Below, in pieces: positions 24,249 to 40,777 of a stretch of 64,000 nucleotides of DNA; the stretch's first letter is position 1; every line of letters starts with the position of its first letter. Source of the stretch: an archaeon GW2011_AR15 (GTDB lineage: Archaea > Nanobdellota > Nanobdellia > Woesearchaeales > GW2011-AR15); the NCBI GenBank assembly GCA_000830295.1, contig CP010425.1, forward strand, positions 608,001-672,000, read 5' to 3'. The notes below the pieces were generated by a model. It was given only the letters and a program-made list of their open reading frames with translations, had not been told where the DNA came from and did not search any database. Made by a program: the position numbers and the translations under genes.

Positions 24249-26903
24249 ATGAAGAAATACGCATATATCGCAGTGCTAATACTTGTGTTTATACTTGCAT
24301 CTGTCTCTGTATATGCTGATGACACTGATTCTGACGGCCTTGATGACGGCTGGGAGATAGGGTATTTCGGCAACCTCCTGCAGACCAGCTCAGGCGATTT
24401 TGAGCCTGACGGCCTGACAAACCTTGAGGAATTCACGCTAACTACAAACCCGAAAGTAGCAGACACAGATGGCGATACTTATTCTGACTGGGAGGAAGCA
24501 GTCCAGGGAAGCAACCCCAATGATGCTAACAGCATCCCTGCAGGAAACATACTTAATATAACCCTGATTAAGCCTAAATTTGTAGTTTCGCCTGTAAAGA
24601 CTTTTGAGCTGCAGATATCCACTCAGAATTCCTCCCAGTGCAAGTACAGCGCCTCCCCCAATGTATTATATGATGATATAGACAACACAAACCAGTTCTT
24701 CACTGCAAGCAACGGAGGGAAAACACACACAATATCTGATTTCCGCCTTGATGCGCAGGATAATTTTGTAGTCCCGATTTATGTGAAATGCAGAATAGAC
24801 TCAAACGGGTTCATAAATGACAACTCGCCGTATGAGATTTCTCTAAGCGTTGATACAACCCCGCCGAAAATAAACTCATTGTATGCAAGCCCCAACCCGG
24901 TCATCGAAAACCTTGATGTCGACCTGATTGCAGTAACGGACGACCCGGCAATATGCAAATATTTTGCAAATAACATTACACTTGCAGATATACAAAGCGT
25001 TTCAGCAGGAGCAAAAATATCAGATTTCAACACTACAAGCACAAGGCATCTTTCAAAAGACACCACTCCGAAAATTGAAGACAAGAAAAGCTACCTTTTC
25101 CATGCAATATGCATGAACAGGGCAGAGCAGGCAACAACAGCAGACGTCAATTTTTCAGTCGACCTTTCAATAAGCAACAGGATAACCCAGAAAAGCCCAT
25201 CAGGCTACATAAATGTCAAAAACACCCAGCTGAAGCTTGTCACAAACAAGCTTGCGACATGCAAATACGGCCAGGGATTCATCAATAATTTCCCTCAGTC
25301 AAACACAAACAACCATTACATTGACCTTACAGAGCTGAATGAGACGTCATACAGCTTTCCCGTACTCTGTACCTTCAGCGATGCAGGCACCCTTTCTGAT
25401 ACAGTATCATTTACAGTTGACACAACACCCCCCTCATCACTGGTGATTAATTCACCAACCCAAAGCTGCTCCCAGGACAGGCTGAGCGTTTCAATGTCAG
25501 CATCAGACACAGCAGGCAATATATCTGGTTTTGATGTAAGGCTTGTTGATGCACTTGATGCAGTGCTGTTCCATATAAACACCGTCTCCACTAATGTGAA
25601 TGCCACGAATCTCTCCCTTGCAGTGGGAAGCACATATTCTTGGGAAGTATCTGCCTTTGACAGGGCAGGCAACAACCTGACTGAAAGGAGTTCAGGGACA
25701 ACAATATTCAGCAGCAATGACACAGTATGCCTCCAGAACCAGGGCCCCCGGATCACAGTTCTTTCCACGCTTACTGAAAACGGGATCTCTGTAAGGCTGG
25801 AATGCATCGATAATGACGGGGTATGCGCAAACATATCCTATCTTGTTTCAGATTCAGCATCATGCACAGGAGATTATCAGGAATATGATGTATTTTCAAA
25901 AATAATCGTATCAGAAGAGTCAACGCTATGCTATACTGCTGCAGACAACCAGGGCACTGAAGTTACAGGCTCAAGACTGGTGAAATACGAGGCGTGCACT
26001 TCAGAGTTCTGCTGCCTTGAACAGCAGGGATATGTGTGCGAAGACAGTGACTGCACTCTTGTTGAAGATGTGCAGTGCGTTCCTGAGAACAAGGACACTG
26101 ACCTTGACGGCATGCCTGATTTCTGGGAAGAGCAGTATGGATTCAATATAAACGTGGATGACTCCAGCCTGGACAAGGATGAGGACGGCCTTGCGAATGT
26201 CCAGGAATATACTTTCGGCTCAAATCCAACCCTCTCGGACACAGATGCAGACGGATATACTGACAAGGAGGAATTTGACGCAAATTCAGATGCAAATGAC
26301 AGTGCAGCCTGGCCGACAACAGGAGACCTTGACAATGACAGGATGACAGAAGGCCAGGAAAAATCCTGCGGAACAGACAGGACAAAAGCTGATGCTGACG
26401 AAGACTATGACCAGGACGGCCTTACAAATTATGATGAGTGCGTCATACACAGGACAAATGCCCTAAAGGCAGACACAGACGGGGACGGATTTGATGACAA
26501 GAAGGAAGTCGACGCAGGAACAGCTCCTGCAAACGGGAATGATTACCCCAACTCGCACTTATTCAGCATTATACTCCTGCTTCTTGGGCTTGGGCTTGTG
26601 GGATTTGGGGCAGTATCGCTTTCAAAAAAATCCGCTTCAAGGCCCAGCATGTCGCCAAATGTTGATTTCAGCAGCGCAAGGCAGCAGCTTTCCCAGCAGC
26701 AGCCGTCAGCACAGAAAAAAAGGCAAGGCATGAAAATTTCAGGAGAAGAGCTTGACAGGGAAATAAAAAAGAAAAGGGAACAGCTCAGGCTGAGGAAAAT
26801 GAGCTCTGTGTTTGATGAATTCGCAGAAAGCAGCCCCAGGCACGAGCAGAAAGAAGATGTCTTTGAAGAAATAGACAGGCTAAGGAAGAAAAAAGGTAAT
26901 TAA
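24249..26903 (+). CDS. surface-anchored protein with thrombospondin type-3-like Ca-binding repeats and Ig/Fn3-like domains
   Basis: Signal peptide; many DTDxDG/DxDGL repeats with TNP/SNP; VDTTPP Ig motifs; C-terminal TM and charged cytoplasmic tail. Confidence 0.85.
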   Translation: MKKYAYIAVLILVFILASVSVYADDTDSDGLDDGWEIGYFGNLLQTSSGDFEPDGLTNLEEFTLTTNPKVADTDGDTYSDWEEAVQGSNPNDANSIPAGNILNITLIKPKFVVSPVKTFELQISTQNSSQCKYSASPNVLYDDIDNTNQFFTASNGGKTHTISDFRLDAQDNFVVPIYVKCRIDSNGFINDNSPYEISLSVDTTPPKINSLYASPNPVIENLDVDLIAVTDDPAICKYFANNITLADIQSVSAGAKISDFNTTSTRHLSKDTTPKIEDKKSYLFHAICMNRAEQATTADVNFSVDLSISNRITQKSPSGYINVKNTQLKLVTNKLATCKYGQGFINNFPQSNTNNHYIDLTELNETSYSFPVLCTFSDAGTLSDTVSFTVDTTPPSSLVINSPTQSCSQDRLSVSMSASDTAGNISGFDVRLVDALDAVLFHINTVSTNVNATNLSLAVGSTYSWEVSAFDRAGNNLTERSSGTTIFSSNDTVCLQNQGPRITVLSTLTENGISVRLECIDNDGVCANISYLVSDSASCTGDYQEYDVFSKIIVSEESTLCYTAADNQGTEVTGSRLVKYEACTSEFCCLEQQGYVCEDSDCTLVEDVQCVPENKDTDLDGMPDFWEEQYGFNINVDDSSLDKDEDGLANVQEYTFGSNPTLSDTDADGYTDKEEFDANSDANDSAAWPTTGDLDNDRMTEGQEKSCGTDRTKADADEDYDQDGLTNYDECVIHRTNALKADTDGDGFDDKKEVDAGTAPANGNDYPNSHLFSIILLLLGLGLVGFGAVSLSKKSASRPSMSPNVDFSSARQQLSQQQPSAQKKRQGMKISGEELDREIKKKREQLRLRKMSSVFDEFAESSPRHEQKEDVFEEIDRLRKKKGN

Positions 26904-26904
26904 A

Positions 26905-27408
26905 ATCAAAAAAGCGCAGGTGTCCTCACAGGTTTTTGTATACATAATGGCTGCAATCATAGTGGCTGTTGTGCTTTTTGTCGGCTACAGGTCAGTCTCC
27001 ACAATATTGGCGGCGGCAGGAAAGGCTACAATAGATACTTTCAAATCAGACTTCAGCTATGCTGTTGAAGATGCTTCTGACAGCTACGGGAGCAGGCACA
27101 AATTTGAATTTACCCTGCCAAAAAAATTTGACAGGATATGTTTTGTCGACTCCATGAATAACGGGAGGTTCAGCATAAACCCCGACAGGATAGATAACTT
27201 TTACATAAGGCTGAGCGTCGAGGATGATGCGGAATATAACGTGTTCCTTCTCAAAGAGGAAAAGATAGAAGAAAGGTTCTATGTCCCTAGCCTTGATGTT
27301 CTTGCAGACTATATGTGCCTTGACAACCAGGGGCTTCTTGAAGTGTGGCTTGAAGGTGTGGGAGACAGGGCCTGCATGGTAAGTGCAACAGGGTCATGTT
27401 TAGGATAG
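26905..27408 (+). CDS. pilin-like protein (class III signal; apparent non-canonical ATC/ATT start)
   Basis: In-frame upstream of GTG 26920: ATT AAA ATC AAA AAA GCG CAG = IKIKKAQ-VSSQVFVYIMAAII. Confidence 0.75.
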   Translation: MKKAQVSSQVFVYIMAAIIVAVVLFVGYRSVSTILAAAGKATIDTFKSDFSYAVEDASDSYGSRHKFEFTLPKKFDRICFVDSMNNGRFSINPDRIDNFYIRLSVEDDAEYNVFLLKEEKIEERFYVPSLDVLADYMCLDNQGLLEVWLEGVGDRACMVSATGSCLG

Positions 27409-27420
27409 ATAGTATAGAAG

Positions 27421-27652
27421 ATGAAAAAAGCCCAGATAGAACAAGGTTTTAATAAAACCTTGAGCAAAACAAGTGCGGCATTCGCTTAAAGCTCAGCCCC
27501 ACAAAAAAATGAAAAAAGCCCAGATAGAAATGCAGTTCAACTATATCAGCTGGTTACGCCCGGCTGGCATGCAAAAGCAGGTTATATCTCGCCCTGCTCG
27601 ATATAACTTACTACCAAAATGAAAAAAGCCCAGATAGAAATGCAGTTCAACT
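27421..27652 (+). repeat. three direct copies of a pilin gene start separated by two hairpin-linker-hairpin inserts
   Basis: ATGAAAAAAGCCCAGATAGAA at 27421, 27509, 27619; copies 2 and 3 share 37 nt; inserts 27442-27508 and 27543-27615. Confidence 0.9.
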
Positions 27653-28599
27653 GGATATATGTTGCTGTAGTCGGAGTTGCGTTCCTGCTGCTGTTTCTGA
27701 GTGTCTCATCAGCAATTAAAAAGAGCTCAGAGGCAAAGATAGCATCAGGGGCAGTTGATTTTTTTGATGAGCTATTCGTAAACCTCCAGGCGTCAGATAA
27801 CACAGAAGACAGGGTATTGCTTCCCGGCATGACAGTTGAGGTAGCTGTTGATAGGGACAACTGCAATTTCTACACAATAGAAGGGACAGACCAGGAGGGG
27901 AGGTCGATAGAATTCACTCCATTTTTCAGCCCTGAGTTTATAGACAGGGAAGCGCTGGCATATACACTTGGATGGGATATCCCGTTCAGGGCATCTTATT
28001 TCCTCTATCTCACAAGCCCTGAGGTTGCCTATGTCTCGATAGGAGCACAAGCGGACCTGCCTGAGCACCTGACTTACTTTAATCTCGGCAGTGCAGGGGG
28101 GTTTGTAGACCAGAATTACAGGAAAATAAGGTTCTTTTCATCTTCATCAAACCCTGCATCATATTCCCTTGACAGTTCAGTTTCTATGATGCCTGACAGG
28201 GATGTAACCGCAGTTTTTATCCAGGGTAATACACTGAGATTCTATGAAAAAGAGGGCAGCAGATTTGTAGAAAAAGGAGAGACTTATTTTTCAGACAGGC
28301 CGACGCTGCTTGCTGCCATATATTCAGACAGCAAAGACAGCTATGAATGCAACATGATGAAATCCCTGAAGAGGCTAAATGCGCTTTCGGGAGTGATGAT
28401 AAAGAGGACGCAGGCGCTGAAGCAGCAGGCATCGTGCTCAGCAGCATATTATGACAGCGCAATTGCACACCTCCGGCAGCTTGAGGCGCAGACAGAAACA
28501 CCAGGCATAAGCTCGCTTCCGAATCTTGCAGCAATAGCAGAATCCCTTAATGGCGTGAATGAAGAGCTCAATAAAATGGCATGCCCCACAATATACTAG
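27619..28599 (+). CDS. pilin-like protein, class III signal peptide
   Basis: MKKAQ-IEMQFNWIYVAVVG hydrophobic helix. Confidence 0.85.
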   Translation: MKKAQIEMQFNWIYVAVVGVAFLLLFLSVSSAIKKSSEAKIASGAVDFFDELFVNLQASDNTEDRVLLPGMTVEVAVDRDNCNFYTIEGTDQEGRSIEFTPFFSPEFIDREALAYTLGWDIPFRASYFLYLTSPEVAYVSIGAQADLPEHLTYFNLGSAGGFVDQNYRKIRFFSSSSNPASYSLDSSVSMMPDRDVTAVFIQGNTLRFYEKEGSRFVEKGETYFSDRPTLLAAIYSDSKDSYECNMMKSLKRLNALSGVMIKRTQALKQQASCSAAYYDSAIAHLRQLEAQTETPGISSLPNLAAIAESLNGVNEELNKMACPTIY

Positions 28600-28614
28600 A
28601 GTGAGAAAAAGACA

Positions 28615-29106
28615 ATGCAGAAAAAAGCCCAGCTCCAGATAATGGAAAACATATTTGCGATAGTGATAATTGTCATAATACTTGCGATAGCGTTTGTCTT
28701 CATGGTGGCTGTTGACAGGCAGGAGCAGAGGAGCAGGGAGCAGGATATAGCAGCCTTGGATGTTGTGAAAAAATCCCAGGTCCTGAATTTCCTTCCTGAG
28801 CTGAAATGCTCAGATAACAACAACCTGGACCCTGACTGCTATGATATACTAAAGATAGAGGCATTCACGCAGCAGGTTTCAGAAGACAATTTTTACTATA
28901 GGACACTGCTCGGCAACATGAAGATCGAGATTGTAAGGTATGACCCGAGCCCCGAAGTCAACAGGGAAGTAAAAAGATGGGTTGTCTATGACAATCCAAA
29001 GGCAGAAGACAGCGGCTACACCCTTGTGCGGCTTCCTGTCCTGCTGAAAGACATTGCAGAAGACAGCGACTATTTCGGCATGATATATATGAGGGTGTAC
29101 AGATGA
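28615..29106 (+). CDS. pilin-like protein, class III signal peptide
   Basis: MQKKAQ-LQIMENIFAIVII. Confidence 0.85.
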   Translation: MQKKAQLQIMENIFAIVIIVIILAIAFVFMVAVDRQEQRSREQDIAALDVVKKSQVLNFLPELKCSDNNNLDPDCYDILKIEAFTQQVSEDNFYYRTLLGNMKIEIVRYDPSPEVNREVKRWVVYDNPKAEDSGYTLVRLPVLLKDIAEDSDYFGMIYMRVYR

Positions 29107-29573
29107 ACAGGAGAGCGCAGACAGAAGTCATTGGAATTGCGGTAATAGTGCTGATACTTGTAATTGCGGGAGGATTCATATTATCAAGAAACCTGAAAGA
29201 AAAATCTCCGGATACAGGCTCTTTCATTGACCCCAAAATCTCGCAGGGATTCCTCAATTCAGTAATGAAGACCAAGACAGAGAGGAATATTGTTGTTGCC
29301 GATGCGATAGCATACTGCCATGACCCCAAGAAAAGGGACCTTTGCGGAGGGGACTGCTGCAGCTATGCCCGCCAGACAATATCCAATGCGCTTGATGCCT
29401 CGCTGAAAGACTGGAAAAGGGAATATTACCTTACAATAAGGCAGGATAGTGCAACAATGATAAATGCAATCTCTTCGCAGGGGTGCGGGCTTTATTCTGA
29501 AAAGGAGCAGCCCGGATTTTATTACATACCTTCTGTTCCGCAGATAACAGTTTCTTTGTATCTGTGCAAATAG
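29103..29573 (+). CDS. pilin-like protein, class III signal peptide
   Basis: MNRRAQ-TEVIGIAVIVL; ATGA overlap. Confidence 0.85.
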   Translation: MNRRAQTEVIGIAVIVLILVIAGGFILSRNLKEKSPDTGSFIDPKISQGFLNSVMKTKTERNIVVADAIAYCHDPKKRDLCGGDCCSYARQTISNALDASLKDWKREYYLTIRQDSATMINAISSQGCGLYSEKEQPGFYYIPSVPQITVSLYLCK

Positions 29574-29635: not shown

Positions 29636-29911
29636 ATGAATAATAAAGCGCAGTCAATTTCTATAAACACGATTGTTGTTGCAGCAATAGCACTGACAGT
29701 CATGATTCTTGTGATTCTTATAACAACAGGCAGCCTGGGGAATTTCAGGAGGTCAGCTGACCAGTGCGAGGCAAACGGCGGGGTCTGCATCAGCGTGGAC
29801 GAGATAGATGAAAAATGCGGCGACCCTGACTATGATATTATAAGAGGGGATTATGTCTGCTATAGCGGCAGGGACCCAGATCCAAATAAAGTATGTTGCG
29901 TGAGCACTTAA
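29636..29911 (+). CDS. small Cys-rich pilin (candidate major pilin)
   Basis: MNNKAQ-SISINTIVVAAIAL; 6 Cys, ends VCCV; own TTTAAATA box and AGGTG RBS. Confidence 0.85.
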   Translation: MNNKAQSISINTIVVAAIALTVMILVILITTGSLGNFRRSADQCEANGGVCISVDEIDEKCGDPDYDIIRGDYVCYSGRDPDPNKVCCVST

Positions 29912-29912
29912 G

Positions 29913-30203
29913 ATGAGAAAGGCACAGTCAATTTCCATAAACACGATTGTTGTTGCAGCAATAGCTCTGATAGTTCTTGTAGTCCTGATTGCCATATTCG
30001 GCGGCAGGATAAGGAATTTCGGAGAGGATAGTCGAAGCTGCCAGAGCCAGGGCGGTGTTGGATGCTTTGAATCATGTGATTCAGATACGCTCGTAGCTGC
30101 AGGAAATCAGCCCGGAATCTATACAAACCTTCCTGGAACAGATTGTGAAGACCAGGGAGAGAATGATAAGTGCTGCGTTCTTGTAGTGCCTACAGGCGGA
30201 TAA
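29913..30203 (+). CDS. small Cys-rich pilin, tandem paralog
   Basis: MRKAQ-SISINTIVVAAIAL identical N-terminus; 6 Cys, ends KCCV. Confidence 0.85.
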   Translation: MRKAQSISINTIVVAAIALIVLVVLIAIFGGRIRNFGEDSRSCQSQGGVGCFESCDSDTLVAAGNQPGIYTNLPGTDCEDQGENDKCCVLVVPTGG

Positions 30204-30271: not shown

Positions 30272-30388
30272 ATGAACTCAAGAGGTGAAACTGGGGAGGG
30301 CGCCAGGCCAATAATTGTCATTATAGCAGTTGTGATATTGCTGTTGTCCCTGGTAGTGGCAGTCGTGAATATTTTTACACATATCTAA
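30272..30388 (+). CDS. 38-aa minimal pilin-like peptide (probable start ATG 30272)
   Basis: MNSRG-ETGEGARPIIVIIAVVILLLSLVVAVVNIFTHI. Confidence 0.55.
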   Translation: MNSRGETGEGARPIIVIIAVVILLLSLVVAVVNIFTHI

Positions 30389-30389: not shown

Positions 30390-31271
30390 ATGAACAAGAA
30401 AGCTTTTAATACTATGATGATGAGTCTCATTCTTGGGATAGTACTTCTTGTATTCGCTATTGGTCTTGTGGACAAGATATTTAAGCCTCTTGATGAAGAG
30501 ATAATAAGCAAGAATTGCTGGGAATCCGTGCTCTTCAATGCAGAAAGGAGAGTGCCTGGAATAGAAGCCCAGACAGTTGCTGTGAAATGCCCGACAAAAT
30601 ACATAACAATACACATGCAGGGCTCGAAGCAGGAATATGAGGAGTCACCCTCAACAGAGAATGAGCCGTTCAAGCTCCCTGATATACAGTTCAAGGATGA
30701 AGATAAGAAAGCATGCGAAGATTCTGATGATGAGGACGCATGTATATTCAGGAATGTGAACAAGGTAATGGCCGATGAAATAGTAAGGTGCTGGAATAAT
30801 TTCCACAGGGGGCAGAAAAGGGTTTTCAGCCTCTATAAGCCTGACCAGACCCAGTGCGTTGTCTGCTCAGTCATCCTGTTCGACAGCGAGATGGTGGAAG
30901 AATATGGGGAAATCGGGCCAATAGGATTCCAGCAGCCGGAGGATGAGCATTACAGCCTTGACCTCTACATGAGGAACAACAACAACCTGAAGTATACAGG
31001 AGAAGAGAATTACTACAAATATTCCCTTGACCTCGTTGATGAGTATTTTGACCTGCCTTACTACGATTACAGCACCAACACGGAATATGCTGTTGTCTTT
31101 GCAGCATTAAACAAGGAAAGGATAAGCGGCATGACAGACAATGCATGGGAAATCATAAAAGCCGCATTCACAAATTATGTCCCGCCTGAGGAAGAGGAAG
31201 GGAATTTCATAAATACACTGCACTTTATACCAAACGAGGAGGTCCCGCTGACATGCGACACATGGGGATGA
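30390..31271 (+). CDS. pilin-like protein with Cys-containing acidic domain
   Basis: MNKKA-FNTMMMSLILG; ADEIVRCWNNF, CVVCS. Confidence 0.8.
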   Translation: MNKKAFNTMMMSLILGIVLLVFAIGLVDKIFKPLDEEIISKNCWESVLFNAERRVPGIEAQTVAVKCPTKYITIHMQGSKQEYEESPSTENEPFKLPDIQFKDEDKKACEDSDDEDACIFRNVNKVMADEIVRCWNNFHRGQKRVFSLYKPDQTQCVVCSVILFDSEMVEEYGEIGPIGFQQPEDEHYSLDLYMRNNNNLKYTGEENYYKYSLDLVDEYFDLPYYDYSTNTEYAVVFAALNKERISGMTDNAWEIIKAAFTNYVPPEEEEGNFINTLHFIPNEEVPLTCDTWG

Positions 31272-31408: not shown

Positions 31409-34216
31409 ATGGCAGACATAACATTCGGGCCAATAGTAAAAGGCGTGGTGGGCATAGTCCTGGTTGTGGCATCAATAGCCATAGTAATAAGCCTTTTCAA
31501 TCCTCTGGCAGGCCAGATATTCGGTTTCTTCAAGGATGTGCTCAATTTTGACCCTATCCCTTTTACAGGAGACAGGGAGGAAATAACTACTGCAACTGCA
31601 TCCGTGCATGCTCTTTTGTGGTCTATAAACAAGGTCGCATGGTATGACACATATCAGAACAAGAGGGGTGATGAGGCGCTTTTTGAGAGGATAGCTTCTG
31701 AGAGGAAGGTTTTCATGGGCACGACAGCAGGCCCTATACTTGATTTTGGGGAGGAAATCCCGTTATCATCGGGCAGCGAGGTTGAGCAGCTGGTCATAGG
31801 CACAATAGACTGCTGGAAGATACTTCAGGCAGGAGAGAAAAATTCAGCATGCTTCATTTACGATTTTTCAGGCTCATCAGCAGAAATAACTGTGCAGCAG
31901 TTCCATGACTTCGGCGCCAAGTACCATAAAGACCATAACTGTGATAAGGAATGCCAGGAGATTTCCAAAAATGTGTTCGGTGGAGGTTTGTTCAACTGGG
32001 CTAACTATGATTTTCATGTTACAGGCGGAAAAATATCAAAGCAGAACCCTATAGTTGTCTGTGCGGACCTGGCAGGGTTCCTCGGAAGGGACAAGGTTCA
32101 GATTACAGACTCCGAGACTCTTGCATATGAAAGATGCGAGCCGCCGAGGGGAGGAGGCAAGTATTCAGTAAAAGTTTACAATTTTGAATTGCCGCAGCAG
32201 ATAAGCACCCCTACAAGCACAGGAGGAACAATAGGCAATATTGTAGAATGGGCAGAGAAATGGGTCAACACCTACGGAGACCCGGAATATGTGCTGTATT
32301 ATGAGGTTTTCCCGAAGGGCGAAGAGGCATACTGGGAGCCAAGCGCATATGTTGTTGATGTTGCAACAATACTTACAAGCGAGGCAGTATTCTTCTTTTT
32401 ATTTGACATGCTGATACCCGGGCTGGGCAGTGCAATAAAGAAAGGCGGTGGAGGGATATTAAAAAGCACGCTCTCCAATATAGGCGAGAATTTAGGGAAA
32501 GCAATAAAGCAGATTGATATAGGCGGCATTTGGCACAATACTAAAACCCTGTCCACCACAGTAAGAAATATACTCCGCGGATCGAGCAACGAAGCAGCGG
32601 AACGACTTGCGAGAGAAATAATTGAAAAAAGCAGCCAGGATGTTGTAGAAGAAACAGTAGAGGAGGTATTGGAGGAGTTTGCAGAACAGGGAATTTCCAG
32701 AGAAGTGCGTAGTGCACTGAAAACAGAATTCAGAGAACTATGGCAGGAGAGCGAGGGAAGAGAGGTATCTGCACTATTTAAAGAATCAGGAGAGCTTGAA
32801 GAGAGGGCAATAACCAGACTGAGAGGCTCCCTTGATGAACTGGAAGAACTGGATGACGCAGCGAAAAATGAGATTATGGATACAGTATCAGCAAGGCTTA
32901 CAAAAGACTCATTCGAATCAGCTTCAGCGCGCGCTATCGGCAATCTTAGACTGGCAAACAAAGTCAACAGCGAGCTTCTGGACAGGGCAGCAGTATGGAG
33001 GGATGCATACCTGCCGGGAGGGGACAGGGCCAAGATAATCGGAGAAATACAGGGAATGGCAGATAAGGCCGCATATTTCAAGGATCTTGATTCTCTAACT
33101 GTAAGAAGGATGACCTCGAATATGGATGATATACTTGAGCTGGCGACAACCGGACAGACAAAAGAGTCTTTCGCCAGAGGGATATTGGGAGAAACATATG
33201 ATGAGGTTGCAAAAGGAGGGGATGAGGCAGTAGAAAAAGCCCTTAATGAACAAATCAGCACATGGCTAAAGGAAGCAGACCCTCTCCAGTATACTGCAGG
33301 GAAACTGAATGCCTACCTGAGAACGCAGGCAGGAAAGCCAAGGCATATGGTTTCACTTCTGATTGCGCTGAATGTCCATCTTGAGAACAGCATGGCAGAG
33401 AAATTCAGGCCGGTTGGAACAAATGCAGTAGGGCTGAGGACACCGTTCTTAGCAACAACAATATATGATGACCTGTATACTGAAACATTTGATTATACAA
33501 AAGACAAAAATATGTACGAGCAATTTTTTGAGCATTACTACGGATATGAAGACGACACAAACGAAACCGATGAGACTTATTTGAGATACAGGGGGCTTCT
33601 GCCTGAAGTCGAGAGGTATTTCCTTACACTGCTCACAGATGCAGGAGAAATGAAAAGGTTCCATTTGGCCAGCCCATGCAAAGCAGATATCATAGTTACT
33701 GAGACGACCTGTGAATGCTGGGGCGGGGAAAGAAAAGAGAAGGAGGTAGGCATCCCCATCCTTTCAGGTTTGCTCAGCCATGGCGCCTTATATCAGACAG
33801 GAAAAACGTACTATGTGGACGGCGAGCCGCTTAGGCTGGATCATTTTGATGGAGAAAACCCGATGCTCTATGCAGTGCAGGAAGGACAAATAGTTAAAGA
33901 GTGCACTCCGAGAGGAGTTCAGAATGTATTTGAAGACATTGGGGAGCTCGGCGAATATCTTCCATGGGCTCAGCCTACGTATACCCCAAGCTGCATCCAG
34001 GCAACTGTTGTGATGGATGAGACAGAAGGCTACAATTATTGTTACCACGGAGAACAAGACCTTGGAATGACATTATCCTATCTGGGCCTTAACTTTGCGC
34101 TTCCTATCGCAGGCACATTATTCCTCGGGCCAATAGGGGGAGTTGTAGGGGGAGTAGTGGGAGGACTTGGATACGCATCAATGCAGGTCAACCACCAGTG
34201 GCCAAATCATAACTAA
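31409..34216 (+). CDS. large membrane protein with internal charged helical domain and C-terminal glycine-zipper TM
   Basis: N-terminal TM; internal hydrophobic segment; E/R/A-rich helical block; LFLGPIGGVVGGVVGGLG. Confidence 0.8.
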   Translation: MADITFGPIVKGVVGIVLVVASIAIVISLFNPLAGQIFGFFKDVLNFDPIPFTGDREEITTATASVHALLWSINKVAWYDTYQNKRGDEALFERIASERKVFMGTTAGPILDFGEEIPLSSGSEVEQLVIGTIDCWKILQAGEKNSACFIYDFSGSSAEITVQQFHDFGAKYHKDHNCDKECQEISKNVFGGGLFNWANYDFHVTGGKISKQNPIVVCADLAGFLGRDKVQITDSETLAYERCEPPRGGGKYSVKVYNFELPQQISTPTSTGGTIGNIVEWAEKWVNTYGDPEYVLYYEVFPKGEEAYWEPSAYVVDVATILTSEAVFFFLFDMLIPGLGSAIKKGGGGILKSTLSNIGENLGKAIKQIDIGGIWHNTKTLSTTVRNILRGSSNEAAERLAREIIEKSSQDVVEETVEEVLEEFAEQGISREVRSALKTEFRELWQESEGREVSALFKESGELEERAITRLRGSLDELEELDDAAKNEIMDTVSARLTKDSFESASARAIGNLRLANKVNSELLDRAAVWRDAYLPGGDRAKIIGEIQGMADKAAYFKDLDSLTVRRMTSNMDDILELATTGQTKESFARGILGETYDEVAKGGDEAVEKALNEQISTWLKEADPLQYTAGKLNAYLRTQAGKPRHMVSLLIALNVHLENSMAEKFRPVGTNAVGLRTPFLATTIYDDLYTETFDYTKDKNMYEQFFEHYYGYEDDTNETDETYLRYRGLLPEVERYFLTLLTDAGEMKRFHLASPCKADIIVTETTCECWGGERKEKEVGIPILSGLLSHGALYQTGKTYYVDGEPLRLDHFDGENPMLYAVQEGQIVKECTPRGVQNVFEDIGELGEYLPWAQPTYTPSCIQATVVMDETEGYNYCYHGEQDLGMTLSYLGLNFALPIAGTLFLGPIGGVVGGVVGGLGYASMQVNHQWPNHN

Positions 34217-34217: not shown

Positions 34218-34892
34218 ATGGAAAACAAAAAAATAATCATTATAACAGGAATTGTTTTATTGATAGTGATAGCAGCGGCCCTGCTGTTAAGAAGCAGCCG
34301 GCAGCCGGCAGAATACGAGTATTATACAGAAGAGCCCGAGACATGGGTTGAAGGCCAGAGATTCACAGAGCCGCCAAATGATGTCAGGATAAATGTCTTT
34401 AAGGCAACAGGGGGGGAATCAACATTCTCCATAAACAAGCAGGATTTTCCAGGAGAGGACAAGGCATTCTTTGTCCAGGGGCTCTACAAAGGAAAATACT
34501 TCGGCACAGTCTACTATGACAATGAAACAAAGGAAAAAATAATCGAGATATCCCAGTCACTTGATCCCGACGATGGAGCAGCCGACATATTCATCCTTGC
34601 AAAAAGCGATGGCCCTGGTTTTGTGTTTTACATTTTTGTCGATGAGGACTGGAGGAATTCAGTCAGCTTTACCAACATAATATACGGCATGGACTTCAAC
34701 AACGACGCAACACTGATAGAGAGGGAATTCAATTTCACTGAACTAAGCACAGGAATATATATGGACAAGCTGGACGACTATAACGGATGGTATGACCAGA
34801 GCCCTGTTACAGGAGGGATAATGGTTGGAGAGATGAATATTGAAGACCTGAAAAAGACAAATGTCACTTCCACACTTGTATTATTGAGGTAA
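34218..34892 (+). CDS. membrane-anchored hypothetical protein (probable start ATG 34218)
   Basis: MENKKIIIITGIVLLIVIAAALLL anchor. Confidence 0.75.
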   Translation: MENKKIIIITGIVLLIVIAAALLLRSSRQPAEYEYYTEEPETWVEGQRFTEPPNDVRINVFKATGGESTFSINKQDFPGEDKAFFVQGLYKGKYFGTVYYDNETKEKIIEISQSLDPDDGAADIFILAKSDGPGFVFYIFVDEDWRNSVSFTNIIYGMDFNNDATLIEREFNFTELSTGIYMDKLDDYNGWYDQSPVTGGIMVGEMNIEDLKKTNVTSTLVLLR

Positions 34893-34894: not shown

Positions 34895-35173
34895 ATGAGA
34901 AAAGCAGAGATAACCTTTACAACGCTTGTATATGCAGCGCTTGCTGTGCTTGTCATACTTGTGCTGATTGCAGTATTCTTTGCGCTGACAAACCCGGCAG
35001 TTGGAAGCATCTTCGGCATAATCACTGAGACAGGAGAAAGCAGCCAGGGGGCCAGGGATGATATAGCTATCTCGCTTGGAAGCTGCGAGCCTGGAACCAG
35101 CAGATGCGTTGCAGGAATAGAATATGTCTGCGGCTCAAACAAAAGATGGGGGAAGACAGAAAATGAATGCTAA
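34895..35173 (+). CDS. small pilin-like protein
   Basis: MRKAE-ITFTTLVYAALAVLVIL; 4 Cys. Confidence 0.8.
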   Translation: MRKAEITFTTLVYAALAVLVILVLIAVFFALTNPAVGSIFGIITETGESSQGARDDIAISLGSCEPGTSRCVAGIEYVCGSNKRWGKTENEC

Positions 35174-35633
35174 GGGAGACCTTACAAGTGATAATGGAAT
35201 CCAGGCTATTTTGTTCGTTGTGCTGGCAGTGCTTGTAATGGTTTTTATAGTAAAATTCTATCTTGCCATGAAGCCGGTCCCGGAATGGTCAAGAGCCCTT
35301 GCAGCCACAGAGCAGGCAATAAACAGCCTTGACCCGGATAACACGGAACTGGTAAGAAAAGTCAATATAAAGCTTGTAGGATACCAGATAAAAGGCCTTT
35401 CCCAGGAGTCCTGCCCTGAAAATGAGGAGATGCCGTCCTGCATATGCGCCTGCACTGACCCCGGCTGCAGCAATGCAATGAAAGAAGAAAAAAAATTCTG
35501 CAGGAATGTAAAATACAACACAACCAACTTTGTGCTCAACCCCAGTTCAGATGATATAATCACTTACAGCATTGGGCTCAACGAGACTACAAAAGAGGTT
35601 ATAGAAAGAGTTAGCATTGGCGGAGCATCATGA
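35163..35633 (+). CDS. pilin-like protein (probable start ATG 35163)
   Basis: MNAKG-DLTSDNGIQAILFVVLAV; CICAC motif. Confidence 0.75.
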   Translation: MNAKGDLTSDNGIQAILFVVLAVLVMVFIVKFYLAMKPVPEWSRALAATEQAINSLDPDNTELVRKVNIKLVGYQIKGLSQESCPENEEMPSCICACTDPGCSNAMKEEKKFCRNVKYNTTNFVLNPSSDDIITYSIGLNETTKEVIERVSIGGAS

Positions 35634-35634
35634 A

Positions 35635-36060
35635 ATGTTCTCAAGAAAAGCCCAGACTGAGATTTCAGTATCAACATCAGTTGAGATAATAATTCTTGTA
35701 CTTGTCATCGGGCTGATGCTGGGCATAGCATACAGGGAGACAACATCCACAAGATATTCAATGCTCTTCCTCTCAAAAGACTCTGCGATGTTCATTGACG
35801 CGCTGCATGCATCTCCCAATAAGATAATAGTGAGATACCCCCAGAAGACAGAAGGATTCAATTTCAGGATTGCAGACAGCAAGGTTACGGTCTACGGCAA
35901 TGATACTGCTTCAGTAGGAGGGATTGTTGACCAGATTGTGGGCGAATCCTTCCCGTATACTTCAGAGAAGGACATAGTGTTCCAGCCGCTTCCGGCTGAC
36001 TATACAGGGGAATACGGGCTGATACTTACAAAAACAAATACAAAGCTGATACAGGACTAA
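35635..36060 (+). CDS. pilin-like protein (probable start ATG 35635)
   Basis: MFSRKAQ-TEISVSTSVEIIILVLV. Confidence 0.8.
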   Translation: MFSRKAQTEISVSTSVEIIILVLVIGLMLGIAYRETTSTRYSMLFLSKDSAMFIDALHASPNKIIVRYPQKTEGFNFRIADSKVTVYGNDTASVGGIVDQIVGESFPYTSEKDIVFQPLPADYTGEYGLILTKTNTKLIQD

Positions 36061-36061
36061 A

Positions 36062-36553
36062 ATGAAAAAAAAGGCACAGACATACACAATCCTGAACTGG
36101 GCGCTGTACAGGATGCCGGTTATAATATTTGTAGCAATATTTTTTGCAATAGCACTGAGGTCTTATTACGGCACAGGCCTGGACAGCCATGATGTTGAAA
36201 ATATGGTTATGATAAAGAGGATAATTTATTCTGACAATATCCTCGCATACAGGGATCCTGTGACAGGCAGGACATTCCCGGGAATAGTTGACATCAATAA
36301 ATTCTCGACAGAGCATATCGAGGAGAATCTCCTGAATAACAACAACAGGATTGCAGTGTATATGGAACTCCAGTTTCTCGACACAGGCGAGATTGAAAAA
36401 GCATACATAAATGAAGAAAGGGCAAGGGCATGGGACGACTATGAGTTTGTCGGCGGGTTTGATTCTTCAAGCCTTGTCAGGTATGTAAGGATATATGACA
36501 ACGGCAGGCTCCGCGACGGAAGGCTTGGCATAAAGCTGCTGGTGAGGGAATGA
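36062..36553 (+). CDS. pilin-like protein
   Basis: MKKKAQ-TYTILNWALYRMPVIIFVAIFF. Confidence 0.8.
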   Translation: MKKKAQTYTILNWALYRMPVIIFVAIFFAIALRSYYGTGLDSHDVENMVMIKRIIYSDNILAYRDPVTGRTFPGIVDINKFSTEHIEENLLNNNNRIAVYMELQFLDTGEIEKAYINEERARAWDDYEFVGGFDSSSLVRYVRIYDNGRLRDGRLGIKLLVRE

Positions 36554-37005
36554 ACAAAAAGGCGCAGTGGCAGGACCTTGCAGATTTGTTTTTGGGAGGC
36601 ACACTCATAATAATGGCAGTCCTCGGATTCATAATATGGGTATCCTTCAATGACGGGATCATAGAAGAAAGGGTTGAGAAAAGAGCTGAGGCGCTCAACA
36701 ATGATGATGTTCTTGTCTCATTCCTGAACACAGAGATTGACGACAGGACTCTCTCAGAGTGGATAATAAGAGCCCATATAGATAGAGAGAATAATTCAAC
36801 AGAGTTTGAAGAAGTGTTGGACACTTTCCTTGCAGATGTCTACCAGCACAGGACATGCTGGACACTCTACAGGCAGGATGAAGAATGGATAAAAAAAGAG
36901 CCATGCTCTGAAGAAGCAGACCTTCTGGATTCAGCAATAGACATTCCGCTTCCTGACAAGACGGCACTCAACATAAGGCTTAACATAAAGGGATACGCAG
37001 AATGA
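36550..37005 (+). CDS. pilin-like protein
   Basis: MNKKAQ-WQDLADLFLGGTLII. Confidence 0.8.
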   Translation: MNKKAQWQDLADLFLGGTLIIMAVLGFIIWVSFNDGIIEERVEKRAEALNNDDVLVSFLNTEIDDRTLSEWIIRAHIDRENNSTEFEEVLDTFLADVYQHRTCWTLYRQDEEWIKKEPCSEEADLLDSAIDIPLPDKTALNIRLNIKGYAE

Positions 37006-38078
37006 AAAAGATGATGGCTTCAAAGAGCGGCAAGGTGTTCTTTACAGTGCTCCTCGGCATATTTTTCATAATGGCGCTCCTGCCTCTTGCCATGAATATT
37101 TCCTTCATGAACCAGGGGAAGTTCGGCAAATCCATAGGGGAATCCCAGCTCATACTCCTGAGGACGTATGAGAAAGGCGAAAAGATCCTCTATTATATTG
37201 ACCAGTCAGCAGTCCACTCCCTGAGGCAGTCTTTATACAATGCCTCGCAGGCCGGGTTTTCATCAGGAGACTGCGGAACATATGACGGCCATAATCTATG
37301 GAACTCAGAAACAGAAGAATGCTATCCAAACCTAAAGGAAGCTGTCAAAGAAAGCTTTATGTCTGAATTTAAGGATTATCTCGGAAGCTATGCAGCCTTC
37401 CCGGACATTGAATATGAATTTTATTTTGCTGAAGGGGATGTCATCATAGGAAAGGCAGCCAGCGAGCTTGCTATGGATGTTGCGGACGGGAATGCGACAG
37501 GAATTGAAAGAGTTGAGCACGCTGAGCCGGAAAATGGGACCGCACAGCAAAGCACAGGAGGAGGTTCAGGGGGCGGAGCATGCACAGTAGGAAGCAGGTT
37601 CAGGGCAATCCCATTAAACCCATGGCCTAATTACATAATAAAGGCATTCGGAGTTCCCGCACCATATCAGAGCGGCGGGATCCACACGGGTATTGATATC
37701 AGGAACCCTCTCATGAATGGCCAGGAGCCACCGATATATGCAGTTGACTGCGGCCGCATTGTCTATGTAGGCCCGCTATTCCTCAGCGGACCGAATGTCG
37801 GCAGGGGAAGCAAGGCAATAATAATAGACCACGGCAATAATGTCTATAGCATATACAGCCATAACTCATATGTTGAGCCGAAGATAATGAATGACATGAA
37901 TTCAAAAGGCTACTCAGATGTTACAGCCGGACAGGTCATAGGAAGGCAGGGCAACGAGGGATACAGCTCAGGCTCCCACGTGCATTTTGAAGTCCATACA
38001 GGGGTAAAGTTTTCAGGCAACTGGGTTACGCCCTGGGTTGGAGGAAGATACGAGGATCCATTAGCATGGCTAACATGA
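37002..38078 (+). CDS. membrane/pilin-anchored M23 family peptidase
   Basis: SKSG-KVFFTVLLG N-terminus; Gly linker; HTGID, IYAVDCGRIV, IIIDHG, YSH, GQVIG, GYSSGSHVHFEV, DPLAWL. Confidence 0.9.
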   Translation: MKKMMASKSGKVFFTVLLGIFFIMALLPLAMNISFMNQGKFGKSIGESQLILLRTYEKGEKILYYIDQSAVHSLRQSLYNASQAGFSSGDCGTYDGHNLWNSETEECYPNLKEAVKESFMSEFKDYLGSYAAFPDIEYEFYFAEGDVIIGKAASELAMDVADGNATGIERVEHAEPENGTAQQSTGGGSGGGACTVGSRFRAIPLNPWPNYIIKAFGVPAPYQSGGIHTGIDIRNPLMNGQEPPIYAVDCGRIVYVGPLFLSGPNVGRGSKAIIIDHGNNVYSIYSHNSYVEPKIMNDMNSKGYSDVTAGQVIGRQGNEGYSSGSHVHFEVHTGVKFSGNWVTPWVGGRYEDPLAWLT

Positions 38079-40777
38079 AATTGATTTTGGCTCTGGTATG
38101 TTTCATTTTATTAGCGGCAGCAGCAAGCGCAGAGACATATCTTTACATGAAATTCAACTACACGCTTGAAAACCCTGATTACGGAAATGAACTTGAAAAT
38201 ATTGAAAACCTGAAAATAACAGAAATATTCACTATTGAAGATACTTACTGGAACAGCTATTATTTCTCCACAGCAGGAGATGCTCATGAATCATACCAGC
38301 TGAAGATATACGGAGGCAGCCAGCTTCTCTATGACGGGCCGGTATTCCCGCAGCTCGGAAGCGCAGCAATAAAATACAGCAGCGGATACAGCGGGCTTGT
38401 CATATATGACGGAAACAATGAAGTGCTTTCCAGAAATATAAATTTCTGCAACAATAATAATGCCTGCGAGCCATGCCTTGATGAAAACTGTACAAAGGCA
38501 GAGAGCGTTTTGACCTGTGGAGACTGCGCAACAGGAAGCGATGACAACTACTGTGACCTCTACAATGACGGGGTATGCGATGCAGACTGCTATGGCGCAG
38601 ACGGAGACTGCAGGCAGTGCGGGAGCTCATGCTATTACAGGGATGACGAAAATGTATACACAACCTGTTCAGGAATATATAACGGGAACATCTGCGAGCC
38701 AGGAGAGGGATGCACAGGCGCATGGGGATATGCAAATGATTCAGGATTCTCGTGCTGCATGCAGGGAACATGCGTCAAGCCCGAAGCAGGCGATTATGAA
38801 ATTGAAGGGAAAAGCTGCTCTGATTTTTCATGGACAGAATGCACAGCTGCAGAATCATGCAAGGGAGAAGAGATATACCTTGAGCACAACGGTGCCACAT
38901 GCTGCCAGGGAACATGCTCTGAAAAAAGCCAGCTGCTTCCGGATATTAACATTGACGCCGGAGAAAAAGGGCCGGTTCTCACGCTGATAGCTGCCGCAGT
39001 CCTTGCTGCAATACTCATCGTATTGTTTACCAGAAAAAAGAAGCCCCTGCCTCTTGCCATGCTCATTTTCCTCATGGCGCTGCCGTCAGCATTCCCTCTT
39101 GAGTCCCAGGCAGAGCAGATGCAGAAAATCTGCAATGTTGCAGAGGCATACAACATGCCCGCCACAACCCTCCTTGCAATAGCATACAAGGAAAGCGGAA
39201 TCCAGCATTACAATTCTGACGGAAGCATAAAGGTGAGTGCAGACGGCGGAGTTGGGATAATGCAGAGGCAGTGGGGAGGGGACCCTGCAAACCTCCCATC
39301 AGGCCCGCTGTATATCTGCCACGGGAACAGCGCCATAGACAGCAGGCAGCTGGACGCAAAAAAACTGGATGACAACATAGAATGCGGGGCCATTGAGCTG
39401 ATAAGAAAATGCGAGACATTCAACTGCATAGGCAACACAAAAGAATATTACTGCTCTAATTCCGGCAACCCTCTGCCTGAAAAAAGAGTGCTTTATTCAG
39501 GATGGGACATTGCACTGAGGGCATACAACGGCTGGGGATGCGAAGCGCCGTATTACAGGGATTTGTGGGGAGCAAACAGCCAGAAATACATAGACCTTCT
39601 TGGCAGGATCCAAAGCTATGTCGAGAGTTTCCATGAAACTGAAAAGCAGTTTACTTCTGTCTGTGACGGCACAACCCCAGGCGGGCCTGAAGAGCCTGCT
39701 CCAGGGGAAGATACCTCAGATATACCGCAGGAGATACTTGACGGCACAAAAATAGGGATATATTATATCAATCCTTCTTTCAGGACATATGCAAATGTCA
39801 ATTTTGAGGAAATATACAATGAGGTGGCATACAGCAGCCAGCTTATTGAAGAAGCCCTGGTCTATATTGGTGAAGGCAGCTCAACCTCTAAGGCAGTCGA
39901 AAGAGCACTTCAGGCTAAAGACAACTGGCAGATTAAGTCATGCTCTGGAAAGATGTGCAGCTTCATAGTTGATACAGGCTATTCTGTTTTTGTATACAGT
40001 GAAGGGGCATATGAGGAAAAGCCCATTGAGCTGAAATTCAGCCTGACAATAGATGAATCAGGAGTAAAGAACTTTACAGCTTTTGAATATGACGAGCTGC
40101 CTTATGAGCAGCAGCCAGTGGAGGAAGAGCCAGAGGAGCAGCCTCCAGTGGAACAGCCGCCAACAACAGGAGGGCACCTGGACGGCATAGATGTGTCGCA
40201 CTGGCAGGGGAACATAGACTGGCAGCAGGTAAAGTCAGACGGGAAGCAGTTTGCGTTCATAAAAGCGACAGAGTCAACAAATTTTATTGATAATAAGTTC
40301 TACTACAATATAAACGAGGCCACAAAAGCAGGTATAATGGCAGGTGCATATCATTTTGCCAGGCCGTCAGCAAACGATGCAAGGTCAGAAGCAAGGTTCT
40401 TTGCAGGCGTGGCAGGACAATATGTAGGCAGTGGCTATCTTAGGCCGGTGCTTGACCTTGAGAAAGGCTCAGAGCTGGGCAGCGCAAGGCTCTCAGCATG
40501 GGTGAATGAGTTCATGGAGGAATTCAGGGCAATTACAGGAGTTGAGCCGATAATATATGCAAATGCGAATTATGTAAGGAATTACCTCGACTCGTCAACA
40601 AACAGGTATGATTTATGGGTAGCGCATTATTATGTCCCGCAGCCCGGCATATCAAGACCATGGCAGTTCTGGCAGTACACAGACAGAGGAGTTGTAAAGG
40701 GCATAGGCGAGCTGGTTGACCTTAATTATTTCAGCGGCGACACTGCAGCACTGAATTCAAGGTTTGTGGTTGCCTAA
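38075..40777 (+). CDS. secreted multidomain muralytic protein: Cys-rich region, TM hairpin, lytic transglycosylase (SLT-like), GH25 muramidase
   Basis: LLAIAYKESG...GVGIMQ...ALRAYNG; GIDVSHWQG, FIKATE, GAYHF, VLDLE, LWVAHY, FWQYT, VDLN. Confidence 0.9.
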   Translation: MKLILALVCFILLAAAASAETYLYMKFNYTLENPDYGNELENIENLKITEIFTIEDTYWNSYYFSTAGDAHESYQLKIYGGSQLLYDGPVFPQLGSAAIKYSSGYSGLVIYDGNNEVLSRNINFCNNNNACEPCLDENCTKAESVLTCGDCATGSDDNYCDLYNDGVCDADCYGADGDCRQCGSSCYYRDDENVYTTCSGIYNGNICEPGEGCTGAWGYANDSGFSCCMQGTCVKPEAGDYEIEGKSCSDFSWTECTAAESCKGEEIYLEHNGATCCQGTCSEKSQLLPDINIDAGEKGPVLTLIAAAVLAAILIVLFTRKKKPLPLAMLIFLMALPSAFPLESQAEQMQKICNVAEAYNMPATTLLAIAYKESGIQHYNSDGSIKVSADGGVGIMQRQWGGDPANLPSGPLYICHGNSAIDSRQLDAKKLDDNIECGAIELIRKCETFNCIGNTKEYYCSNSGNPLPEKRVLYSGWDIALRAYNGWGCEAPYYRDLWGANSQKYIDLLGRIQSYVESFHETEKQFTSVCDGTTPGGPEEPAPGEDTSDIPQEILDGTKIGIYYINPSFRTYANVNFEEIYNEVAYSSQLIEEALVYIGEGSSTSKAVERALQAKDNWQIKSCSGKMCSFIVDTGYSVFVYSEGAYEEKPIELKFSLTIDESGVKNFTAFEYDELPYEQQPVEEEPEEQPPVEQPPTTGGHLDGIDVSHWQGNIDWQQVKSDGKQFAFIKATESTNFIDNKFYYNINEATKAGIMAGAYHFARPSANDARSEARFFAGVAGQYVGSGYLRPVLDLEKGSELGSARLSAWVNEFMEEFRAITGVEPIIYANANYVRNYLDSSTNRYDLWVAHYYVPQPGISRPWQFWQYTDRGVVKGIGELVDLNYFSGDTAALNSRFVVA

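Follow-up and report, generated by a model that had tools for sequence, protein, structure and literature searches.

A conserved pilin-like operon of Woesearchaeales archaea ends in exchangeable peptidoglycan-hydrolase domains

Gene content of the locus

We analyzed a stretch of 64,000 nucleotides, referred to as the window, from the chromosome of the tiny groundwater archaeon GW2011_AR15 (order Woesearchaeales; contig CP010425.1, positions 608,001 to 672,000). Unless stated otherwise, coordinates are those of this window. Positions 24249-40777 hold an operon of 18 open reading frames (ORFs) plus one ORF of 38 amino acids (aa), all on the + strand. It opens with the gene for a surface adhesin, continues with genes for pilin-like proteins and is closed by two genes that encode peptidoglycan (murein) hydrolase domains. 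The arrangement recurs across the order, with differing murein hydrolases in the terminal position.

The intergenic gaps in the operon range from -13 to +15 nt, with four exceptions of 62-210 nt. A sequence-only reading of the window had described about 19 co-oriented and mostly tightly coupled genes, around 14 of them with class III-like signal peptides, and both descriptions hold. A heuristic script, which looked for [KR][GAS] followed by 16 uncharged, mostly hydrophobic residues, called class III-like N-termini in 12 of the 19 script-called ORFs of the locus versus 57 of 1342 in the rest of the chromosome (Fisher p=4e-12). By eye, the ORFs at 26899/26920, 35635, 36062 and 37002 also fit the pattern, giving a total of roughly 14-16. 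A [KR]AQ leader could be read in ten of the N-termini.

The first of the two terminal genes (37002..38078, + strand) encodes a protein of 358 aa with a class III-like N-terminus, an N-terminal module of ~170 aa (37002-37526), a Gly/Ser linker and an M23 metallopeptidase domain (about 37680-38000). The M23 domain covers residues 227-333 and matches Pfam with E=4.1e-16 (59.4 bits versus a gathering cut-off of 28.7). Its HTGID (37683-37697) and HVHF (37977-37988) motifs align with the metal ligands (HxxxD, HxH) of solved M23 enzymes. We refer to this protein, and to proteins sharing its N-terminal module, as carriers.

The second terminal gene (38066..40777, + strand) encodes a protein of 903 aa. 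It consists of a signal peptide, a Cys-rich module (~residues 23-300), two hydrophobic helices (residues 304-322 and 327-345), an SLT-like region (about 39083-39600), a middle region and a GH25 muramidase domain (40184-40705; residues 708-880; Pfam E=1e-48, 166.5 bits versus a cut-off of 27). When aligned to cellosyl (1jfx), GIDVSHWQG and LDLE are conserved, so that the catalytic D...DxE residues are intact. The nearest named short relatives of this domain are bacterial. For M23 and GH25, the earlier assignment of intact enzyme domains is thus confirmed.

The SLT assignment is the weakest part of this description, and the domain appears to be divergent. The copy in the window scores 13.8 bits (E=0.043), which is below the Pfam cut-off of 21.3, and SLT is not listed at E<=0.1 when the whole 903-aa protein is scanned against Pfam. 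A PDB search with a profile of the SLT region gave 0 matches at E<=1. Of eight orthologous regions, on the other hand, seven match Pfam SLT (best 1.8e-6), and the fused orthologues of two relatives (G007 and G012) pass the cut-off. In the alignment of the eight orthologues, E37 (the Glu of AYKESG), G56, G58 and Q61 (the G-x-G-x-x-Q of GIMQ) and Y148-N149-G150-W151 are invariant. These correspond to the catalytic Glu-Ser, G-x-M-Q and A-Y-N-x-G motifs of the SLT/GH23 family. The SLT-like domain of the sequence-only reading therefore stands on its motifs and on its orthologues, and not on the score of the window copy itself.

The Cys-rich N-terminal module of the 903-aa protein (38135-38965) recurs in relatives as separate proteins of 160-430 aa, several per genome (G031, G011, G010, G014 and others). 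It may be a binding module.

The adhesin-like protein encoded by the first gene of the operon (24249..26903, + strand; 884 aa) has a Sec-type signal, TSP3 calcium-binding repeats, a PA-type calcium-binding domain and a C-terminal transmembrane anchor (residues 771-789). The Pfam matches are TSP3_bac (E=1.3e-8) and the Binary_toxB calcium-binding domain (E=3.4e-6), in agreement with the calcium-binding surface adhesin that had been proposed to precede the pilin-like genes. Its homologues stand at the head of the operon in relatives.

Four mid-sized pilin-like genes follow, all on the + strand. Protein 1 (26899..27408) begins with KKAQ and a hydrophobic helix, and its orthologues begin M..K[AG]Q. 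Within 26896-26925, its KKAQ motif lies upstream of the first ATG, GTG or TTG codon, the GTG at 26920 that the ORF caller used as start. The likely start is an ATT at 26899 (ATT AAA ATC AAA AAA GCG CAG), overlapping the adhesin's stop codon (TAA). This ATT would either serve as a non-canonical start or mark an ATG that has been lost. Protein 2 (27619..28599; 326 aa, MKKAQ...QFNWIY) is encoded by the best conserved core gene of the locus, with 40-48% identity in family relatives. Protein 3 (28615..29106; 163 aa) begins MQKKAQ and protein 4 (29103..29573; 156 aa) begins MNRRAQ, its start overlapping the preceding stop. Next come two small Cys-rich pilin-like paralogues of 91 and 96 aa (29636..30203, + strand; KAQSISINTIVVAAIAL), which are candidate filament subunits and are often present in 1-3 copies in relatives. 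The 38-aa ORF (30272..30388, + strand) consists only of MNSRGE and a hydrophobic helix. At the same position, relatives carry class III-like ORFs of 46-56 aa (e.g. L021:10010-10156 and L036:11317-11475), and the element could be a minimal pilin of the Flp type.

The middle of the operon holds three further genes on the + strand, each with homologues in relatives. A pilin-like protein of 293 aa (30390..31271; MNKKAF) contains 8 Cys. It is followed by a protein of 935 aa (31409..34216) with a class III-like N-terminus (KG, then a helix) and a C-terminal glycine-rich hydrophobic segment. No Pfam family matched this giant protein above the cut-off, and in the ESM Atlas its best feature score was 0.84 (none >=0.9) and its structural TM score at most 0.21, which names no family. 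Homologues of 975-2049 aa occupy the same operon position in relatives. The third is an N-terminally anchored protein of 224 aa (34218..34892; MENKK, then a helix).

Between the anchored protein and the M23 carrier lie genes for three small pilin-like proteins beginning MRKAE (34895-35173), MNAKG (35163-35633) and MFSRKAQ (35635-36060) and for two further ones of 163 aa (MKKKAQ) and 151 aa (MNKKAQ) at 36062..37005, all on the + strand. The last two have positional orthologues in relatives. Their genes overlap by 4 nt, both with one another and with the M23 gene, and are thereby translationally coupled.

A conserved carrier module with exchangeable hydrolase domains

Among family relatives, conservation of the M23 protein ends after its first ~165 residues. 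A profile of this N-terminal module, built from 17 sequences, matched 263 of the 301 sampled genomes of the order and, in a phylum-wide sample, 197 of 251 genomes. The first count includes the unpublished genomes G223, G227, G380, G130, G320 and G318 and the second G227 and G488; their removal would shift the counts by at most 6 and 2, respectively. In 1.84 billion library representatives, the module gave 1954 matches at E<=1e-3. It always occupied residues 1 to ~170, in proteins of 127-1332 aa. The sequence [KR][GAS] stands directly before the helix in 77 of the 84 scorable carriers versus 32 of 173 among the genome's other ORFs with a hydrophobic N-terminus.

The domain behind the module differs between relatives. 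Within the family, Peptidase_C39_2 follows it in five genomes (G001, G013, G004, G019 and G031), and in G007 and G012 it is followed by NlpC/P60 and then SLT on a single chain of 1178 or 1226 aa. Three further carriers (G003, G005, G002) showed no recognisable domain behind the module. In 13 carriers of other families, matches above the Pfam cut-off were to SLT (3), M23 (1), GH73 glucosaminidase (1) and Amidase_2 (1). Three more had sub-threshold matches (M23, SLT and 3D) and four had none, one of these being only 274 aa long.

For a larger tally, 100 regions were taken from the 150 best module matches in the order. Three did not contain the module (L107, L137 and L142), leaving 97 carriers. 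The selection left out genomes already analyzed, the unpublished genomes G223, G227, G380 and G130, some 15 frames shorter than 300 aa (e.g. 194 aa in G149 and 168 aa in G121), three carriers truncated at the end of a contig and a few entries at the bottom of the ranking. In the parts behind the module, Pfam (E<=1e-3; family counts overlap) found mostly murein hydrolases (SLT 25, SLT_2 2, SLT_4 1, Glucosaminidase 4, 3D 3, Lysozyme_like 5, Phage_lysozyme2 2, VgrG3-like_C 1, M23 20, VanY 7, Peptidase_M15 5, M15_4 1, NlpC/P60 3, Peptidase_M74 3, Amidase_2 6, Amidase_3 1). Families not related to the wall were fn3 (5), TPM (2), Metallophos (2), Metallophos_2 (1) and Ig (1).

Iterated hidden Markov models (HMMs) assigned 52 of the 97 carriers (SLT 28, M23 21, Amidase_2 6, 3D 3, glucosaminidase 1). 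For the other 45, Pfam added VanY (7), M15 (5), M74 (3), NlpC/P60 (2), VgrG3-like (1), Amidase_3 (1) and glucosaminidase (1). Iterated HMMs seeded with NlpC/P60, C39_2 and GH25 matched none of the 97 C-terminal parts, although Pfam finds three NlpC/P60 domains. Since the iterated models thus under-call some families, we give the union of both methods as a range: a murein hydrolase is present on 67-72 of the 97 carriers.

The carriers therefore combine an N-terminal class III-like signal, a conserved module, a linker and a C-terminal domain that differs between orthologues, and the catalytic domain has been replaced repeatedly. One operon position and one carrier module are shared by at least a dozen unrelated folds that have only murein cutting in common, which argues for selection on murein cleavage by the apparatus.

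Conservation of the operon in relatives

Of the 19 other family genomes, 18 encode a full-length homologue of the 903-aa enzyme, as do 5 of 21 genomes that each represent a different family. The 20-kb regions of 12 relatives share their gene order with the window, namely adhesin, four mid-sized pilin-like proteins, small Cys-rich pilins, the 293-aa protein, the giant protein, the anchored protein, small pilin-like proteins and the homologues of the M23 protein and the 903-aa protein. Synteny over the whole operon is seen in 8 family relatives. In 20 loci from other families of the order, the architecture is kept and mostly ends beside the RPA gene as in the window. A profile of pilin-like protein 2 matched 256 of the 301 sampled order genomes (197 of 223 high-quality ones); the former count includes seven unpublished genomes (G200, G227, G139, G223, G130, G225 and G261), whose removal would shift it by at most 7. 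Unpublished genomes enter the analysis through such profile counts only.

Distances between this core pilin gene and the carrier module were collated by hand from the profile matches. Both lie on one contig in 51 genomes. In 47 of these they are on the same strand, 6.4-16.3 kb apart; of the remaining four, one has them 16 kb apart on opposite strands and three have a spacing of 65-220 kb. In 27 further genomes the two are on different contigs. The predicted linkage of hydrolases to pilin loci is thus seen in family relatives and across the order.

The trio of M23, SLT and GH25 is particular to the genome of the window, and relatives hold other combinations. The last gene of the operon varies as well. 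In G001 (L025:5497-9006) it encodes GH25 together with a NAGPA phosphodiester glycosidase domain (9.5e-27) and in G003 (L010:1411-4152) a GDSL/SGNH hydrolase (5.8e-18). These two domains hint at action on wall teichoic acid linkages, O-acetyl groups or lipids.

In one complete relative (G035), a gene for a secreted protein with a Laminin_G_3/concanavalin-like lectin domain (L040:3038-3874; 3.7e-23) lies between the terminal M23 carrier and RPA. The protein may be an added binding component.

Genome setting, motor genes and murein synthesis

The source chromosome is a single contig of 1,157,790 bases with a completeness of 96.8% and a contamination of 0.7%. The GC content is even throughout the locus (0.44-0.47), and the flanking genes are of archaeal type (RNase J, PCNA, RPA, RadA, GatD and AspRS). 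Two of the three Rfam tRNA matches of the window have the size expected with an intron, 151 bases (9016-9166) and 127 bases (10352-10478). ARAGORN finds only the uninterrupted tRNA; these two, found by Rfam only, are presumably intron-bearing archaeal tRNAs. Together with the many relatives in which the same operon adjoins RPA, these features identify the contig as archaeal and speak against the bacterial or chimeric origin that the sequence-only reading had named as a possible objection.

On the chromosome the locus lies at 632-649 kb. The motor and processing genes that the sequence-only reading expected elsewhere in the genome are indeed present: three T2SSE ATPases (PF00437; at 345, 352 and 806 kb), four T2SSF platform domains in two loci (PF00482; 353-354 and 804-805 kb) and a single prepilin peptidase of the A24 family (PF01478; 891 kb, genome positions 891267-891596).

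A search of the genome for PBP transpeptidases, FtsW/RodA and GT51 found none, and bacterial control genomes do match these profiles. There is a single Mur_ligase_M match, a family also matched in the Methanocaldococcus and Haloferax controls. The pilin-like locus is the only place in the genome that matches GH25, the SLT profile or, above the cut-off, M23. The only other hint of a murein hydrolase is a sub-threshold M23-like match of 20.7 bits in a 394-aa frame (G000:C1:384162-384416).

Proposed function and alternative explanations

We propose, with a probability of about 0.6, that the locus supplies both the structural components and the effectors of a surface apparatus resembling a type IV filament, which digests bacterial peptidoglycan at contact. 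The motor (ATPase and platform protein) and the prepilin peptidase would be supplied from elsewhere in the genome. After cleavage by this peptidase, the four conserved mid-sized and several small pilin-like proteins would form a filament, or a short pseudopilus with a minor-pilin complex, and binding to the target would fall to the calcium-binding adhesin. Incorporated as the carrier, the last pilin-like protein would display a murein hydrolase, in this genome an M23 endopeptidase, on a flexible linker behind its class III signal, helix and ~170-aa module. A lytic transglycosylase and a GH25 muramidase would come from the 903-aa protein, which is translationally coupled to the carrier and probably held in the membrane by its helical hairpin. 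Jointly, the enzymes could cut peptide cross-links and glycan strands where the archaeon touches a bacterium, and the opened wall would allow attachment, penetration or uptake of cell contents. The lifestyle would be episymbiotic or predatory rather than competitive or scavenging.

SLT, GH25, GH73 and Amidase_2/3 act on glycan containing N-acetylmuramic acid (MurNAc), and VanY/M15 on D-Ala-D-Ala. To our knowledge, pseudomurein and S-layers have neither. A bacterial target is suggested by the combination of a producer that does not encode murein polymerases and an enzyme set that does not fit pseudomurein or S-layers.

Several observations weigh against this proposal. No motor gene lies inside or next to the locus, and the nearest pair of ATPase and platform genes is ~160 kb away. 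A Pfam scan of the locus proteins returned no pilin family. Several genomes have a split locus or an SLT gene that lies apart from it, and in the sister orders of the class the carrier frames have only 233-295 aa, too short for an enzyme. In the tally above, 25-30 of the 97 carriers have no recognised hydrolase, and the SLT copy of the window scores below its cut-off. When their profiles were compared, the carrier and the two upstream pilin-like families aligned in signal and helix only (probabilities 24% and 57%), so it gives no evidence of paralogous globular parts in the carrier and its neighbours. In the 903-aa enzyme, a Sec-type signal and two internal hydrophobic helices take the place of a pilin N-terminus, and the fused proteins of G007 and G012 have a hydrophobic stretch in mid-chain. 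With such internal helices, these proteins fit a membrane-tethered ectoenzyme better than a fibre subunit. A 2026 survey describes type 4 filaments as widespread in archaea except Asgard and DPANN (PMC13705601).

Multimer modelling, which had been suggested as a check, was applied to the carrier module and its two upstream pilin-like proteins. The predicted complex scored 0.44 (best control 0.22), a value that the N-terminal helices, which were included, may drive. The runs had a contact agreement of >=63% and a partner pLDDT of >=49. Of 80 solved complexes, 58 attained the mark used here, as did 2 of 110 mismatched pairs; those doing so with scores <=0.60 were only 7 of the solved complexes, together with both mismatches. 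The prediction thus points weakly to an association. Of the original idea of a pilus that presents wall-degrading enzymes to a bacterium, the archaeal origin and the order-wide linkage of hydrolases to pilin loci can be stated as found. The physical presentation of the enzymes by a filament is something we infer, given the N-terminus of the 903-aa protein and the score of the complex.

The strongest alternative is that the hydrolases are membrane-anchored ectoenzymes merely co-transcribed with surface genes. The [KR][GAS] residues and helix would then be a signal anchor, and the enzymes would serve antibacterial competition, killing in the manner of bacteriolysins, or the scavenging of murein or dead bacterial cells as nutrients, with no dedicated host and no display on a filament. 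The layout of the 903-aa protein, the distant motor genes, the low complex score and the fact that the pilin nature of the proteins is read from a sequence motif would all suit this explanation, as would published archaeal peptidoglycan hydrolases that kill bacteria (PMC12352652). It does not account as readily for an enzyme-bearing protein whose N-terminal design is common to ~14 neighbours, which is translationally coupled to pilin-like genes and whose terminal position in a 16-kb operon is fixed across the order. The excess of [KR][GAS] in carriers over other anchored ORFs (77/84 versus 32/173) also argues against a simple anchor. We regard this alternative as clearly less probable than the proposal above.

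Much less probable is that the enzymes let the filament pass by acting on the producer's own wall or, in an archaeal host, on an envelope built of pseudomurein or another polymer. Such a role would be akin to that of the dedicated lytic transglycosylases of bacterial flagellar, type IV secretion and pilus systems, and bacterial trans-envelope machines often have an SLT, M23 or GH73 enzyme of their own. Remodelling of an own wall was rejected, as PBP, FtsW/RodA and GT51 are absent from the genome and the Mur_ligase_M match is shared with archaeal controls. The swapped families (amidases, VanY/M15, M74, GH25, GH73) are specific for a MurNAc and D-amino-acid chemistry that pseudomurein lacks. Cultivated DPANN archaea all have archaeal hosts (10.1101/2023.02.24.529834), which would favour an archaeal target. 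Against such a target, pseudomurein makers contribute only 2 of the archaeal hydrolase homologues of a published survey (PMC12352652).

Finally, there is a negligible chance that the hydrolase genes stem from bacterial contamination or mis-assembly, or that they were acquired horizontally, have no function and are decaying: the GH25 domain is indeed most similar to bacterial lysozymes, but the chromosome is a single complete contig of even composition over the locus, the hydrolase frames and catalytic motifs are intact, the enzymes are fused to an archaeal-type N-terminal module, and the arrangement is kept in hundreds of independently assembled genomes. Contamination as the source was rejected on the even composition, the complete contig and the carrier module in 263 of 301 order genomes.

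Relation to known systems

The operon resembles the organization of minor-pilin and PilY1/PilC operons of type IVa pili and of GspH-K in type II secretion, with at least four minor-pilin-like genes beside a large calcium-binding adhesin and apart from the motor. In contrast to those operons, no sequence homology was detected by Pfam, and the adhesin is of the TSP3/PA type with a membrane anchor rather than a beta-propeller. A second likeness is to virion-associated lysins of phages and to the hydrolases of Gram-positive conjugation (PrgK: LytM, SLT, CHAP), in which a structural carrier is combined with shuffled murein hydrolases (M23, SLT, NlpC/P60/CHAP, amidase, GH25, GH73) that open the wall locally. 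Those belong to phages and bacteria, and the conjugation enzymes cut the wall of the producer itself, whereas here the carrier is pilin-like and belongs to an archaeon without murein.

A close parallel for the carrier is found in the modular type IV pilins of bacteria, such as PilB and PilC of Streptococcus sanguinis (Raynaud et al. 2021, PMC8179133). These combine a class III signal and a small carrier with a short linker and a bulky effector that is thought to be exposed at the tip, and many alternative modules are known for one carrier. They are bacterial (motif IPR012902) and mostly carry adhesive modules; one peptidase module is described, and the available text mentions no murein hydrolases. 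The archaeal proteins differ in their KK[GA]-type signal and their lytic modules, and the carrier is assigned to the pilins by its sequence motif. From the layout shared with the minor-pilin/PilY1 operons and the modular pilins, we read the carrier as a putative modular minor pilin and the 903-aa protein as its probable membrane-tethered partner. In lifestyle only, the Saccharibacteria (CPR) offer an analogy, as ultrasmall episymbionts that use type IV pili for host binding; theirs is a bacterial system, and the available text mentions no lytic modules on its pilins (PMC11623550).

Large murein-like lytic transglycosylases of Woesearchaeota and Pacearchaeota have been published before, together with the idea of a bacterial host or prey (PMC8204110, PMC9723730, PMC10936187). 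The proteins described there (2015/2021, fam00969; GH23 in Vigneron et al. 2022) come from the same taxon, belong to the same enzyme class and led to the same inference of an episymbiont or predator that binds or degrades bacterial walls. The 903-aa protein fits the description of fam00969 of Castelle, and module 98 of that work (51 co-occurring families) may overlap with the operon. Those papers treat single proteins, and the words pili and pilin are absent from their main texts. Here, the enzyme genes close an order-wide pilin-like operon, and the carrier bears a dozen alternative murein hydrolase families. Likewise, the work on archaeal peptidoglycan hydrolases that kill bacteria, which are prominent in Nanoarchaeota, contains neither pili nor pilin in its available text (PMC12352652), and the available text of the survey of type 4 filaments contains neither peptidoglycan nor hydrolase (PMC13705601). 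In the literature searched (supplements excluded), we found no description of the pilin operon, the carrier module, the swapping of domains or a link between murein hydrolases and pilins in Woesearchaeota or DPANN. What is new is therefore the order-wide pilin-like operon and its modular carrier with swapped hydrolases; the lytic transglycosylases themselves were known.

Woesearchaeota are among the most widespread uncultured archaeal groups, and the locus speaks to the question of their hosts. As a conserved and recognisable genetic marker, it links a set of surface-filament genes with enzymes useful only against bacterial walls, with ~2000 carrier sequence clusters worldwide and the core pilin-like gene in ~85% of the sampled order genomes. 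It would extend the idea of modular pilins to archaea and to lytic enzymes, and the carriers amount to a large natural library of putative membrane-displayed murein hydrolases. A conserved cluster with swapped cutting enzymes suggests that a whole archaeal group attacks or attaches to bacteria. Going further, most members of the order might carry a dedicated 'wall-drilling' pilus derived from type IV filaments. Its tip pilin would display a murein-lytic warhead that can be exchanged, even between members of one genus, much like the lysins of phage tails. We offer this as a tentative idea, to which we give somewhat less than even odds. If it is true, Woesearchaeota as a group would live on bacterial hosts or prey, in a cross-domain episymbiosis with its own conserved machine, and the type of warhead would predict the wall chemistry of the partner.

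Other genes of the window

Class III-like N-termini also occur elsewhere in the window. On the - strand, 11015-16000 encodes a protein of 1661 aa with such an N-terminus (GKRSQASIFAIIGLLIV), for which no Pfam family was found at E<=0.001. At 52648-63193 lies another group of genes with class III-type N-termini (MRRKSQVA, MKKRGQVA, MQKKSQVI, KSRKAQIS), none of them for a hydrolase. It includes a cohesin-domain protein (57902-58816; 1.7e-10) and a protein of 1447 aa with a MopE metal-binding motif.

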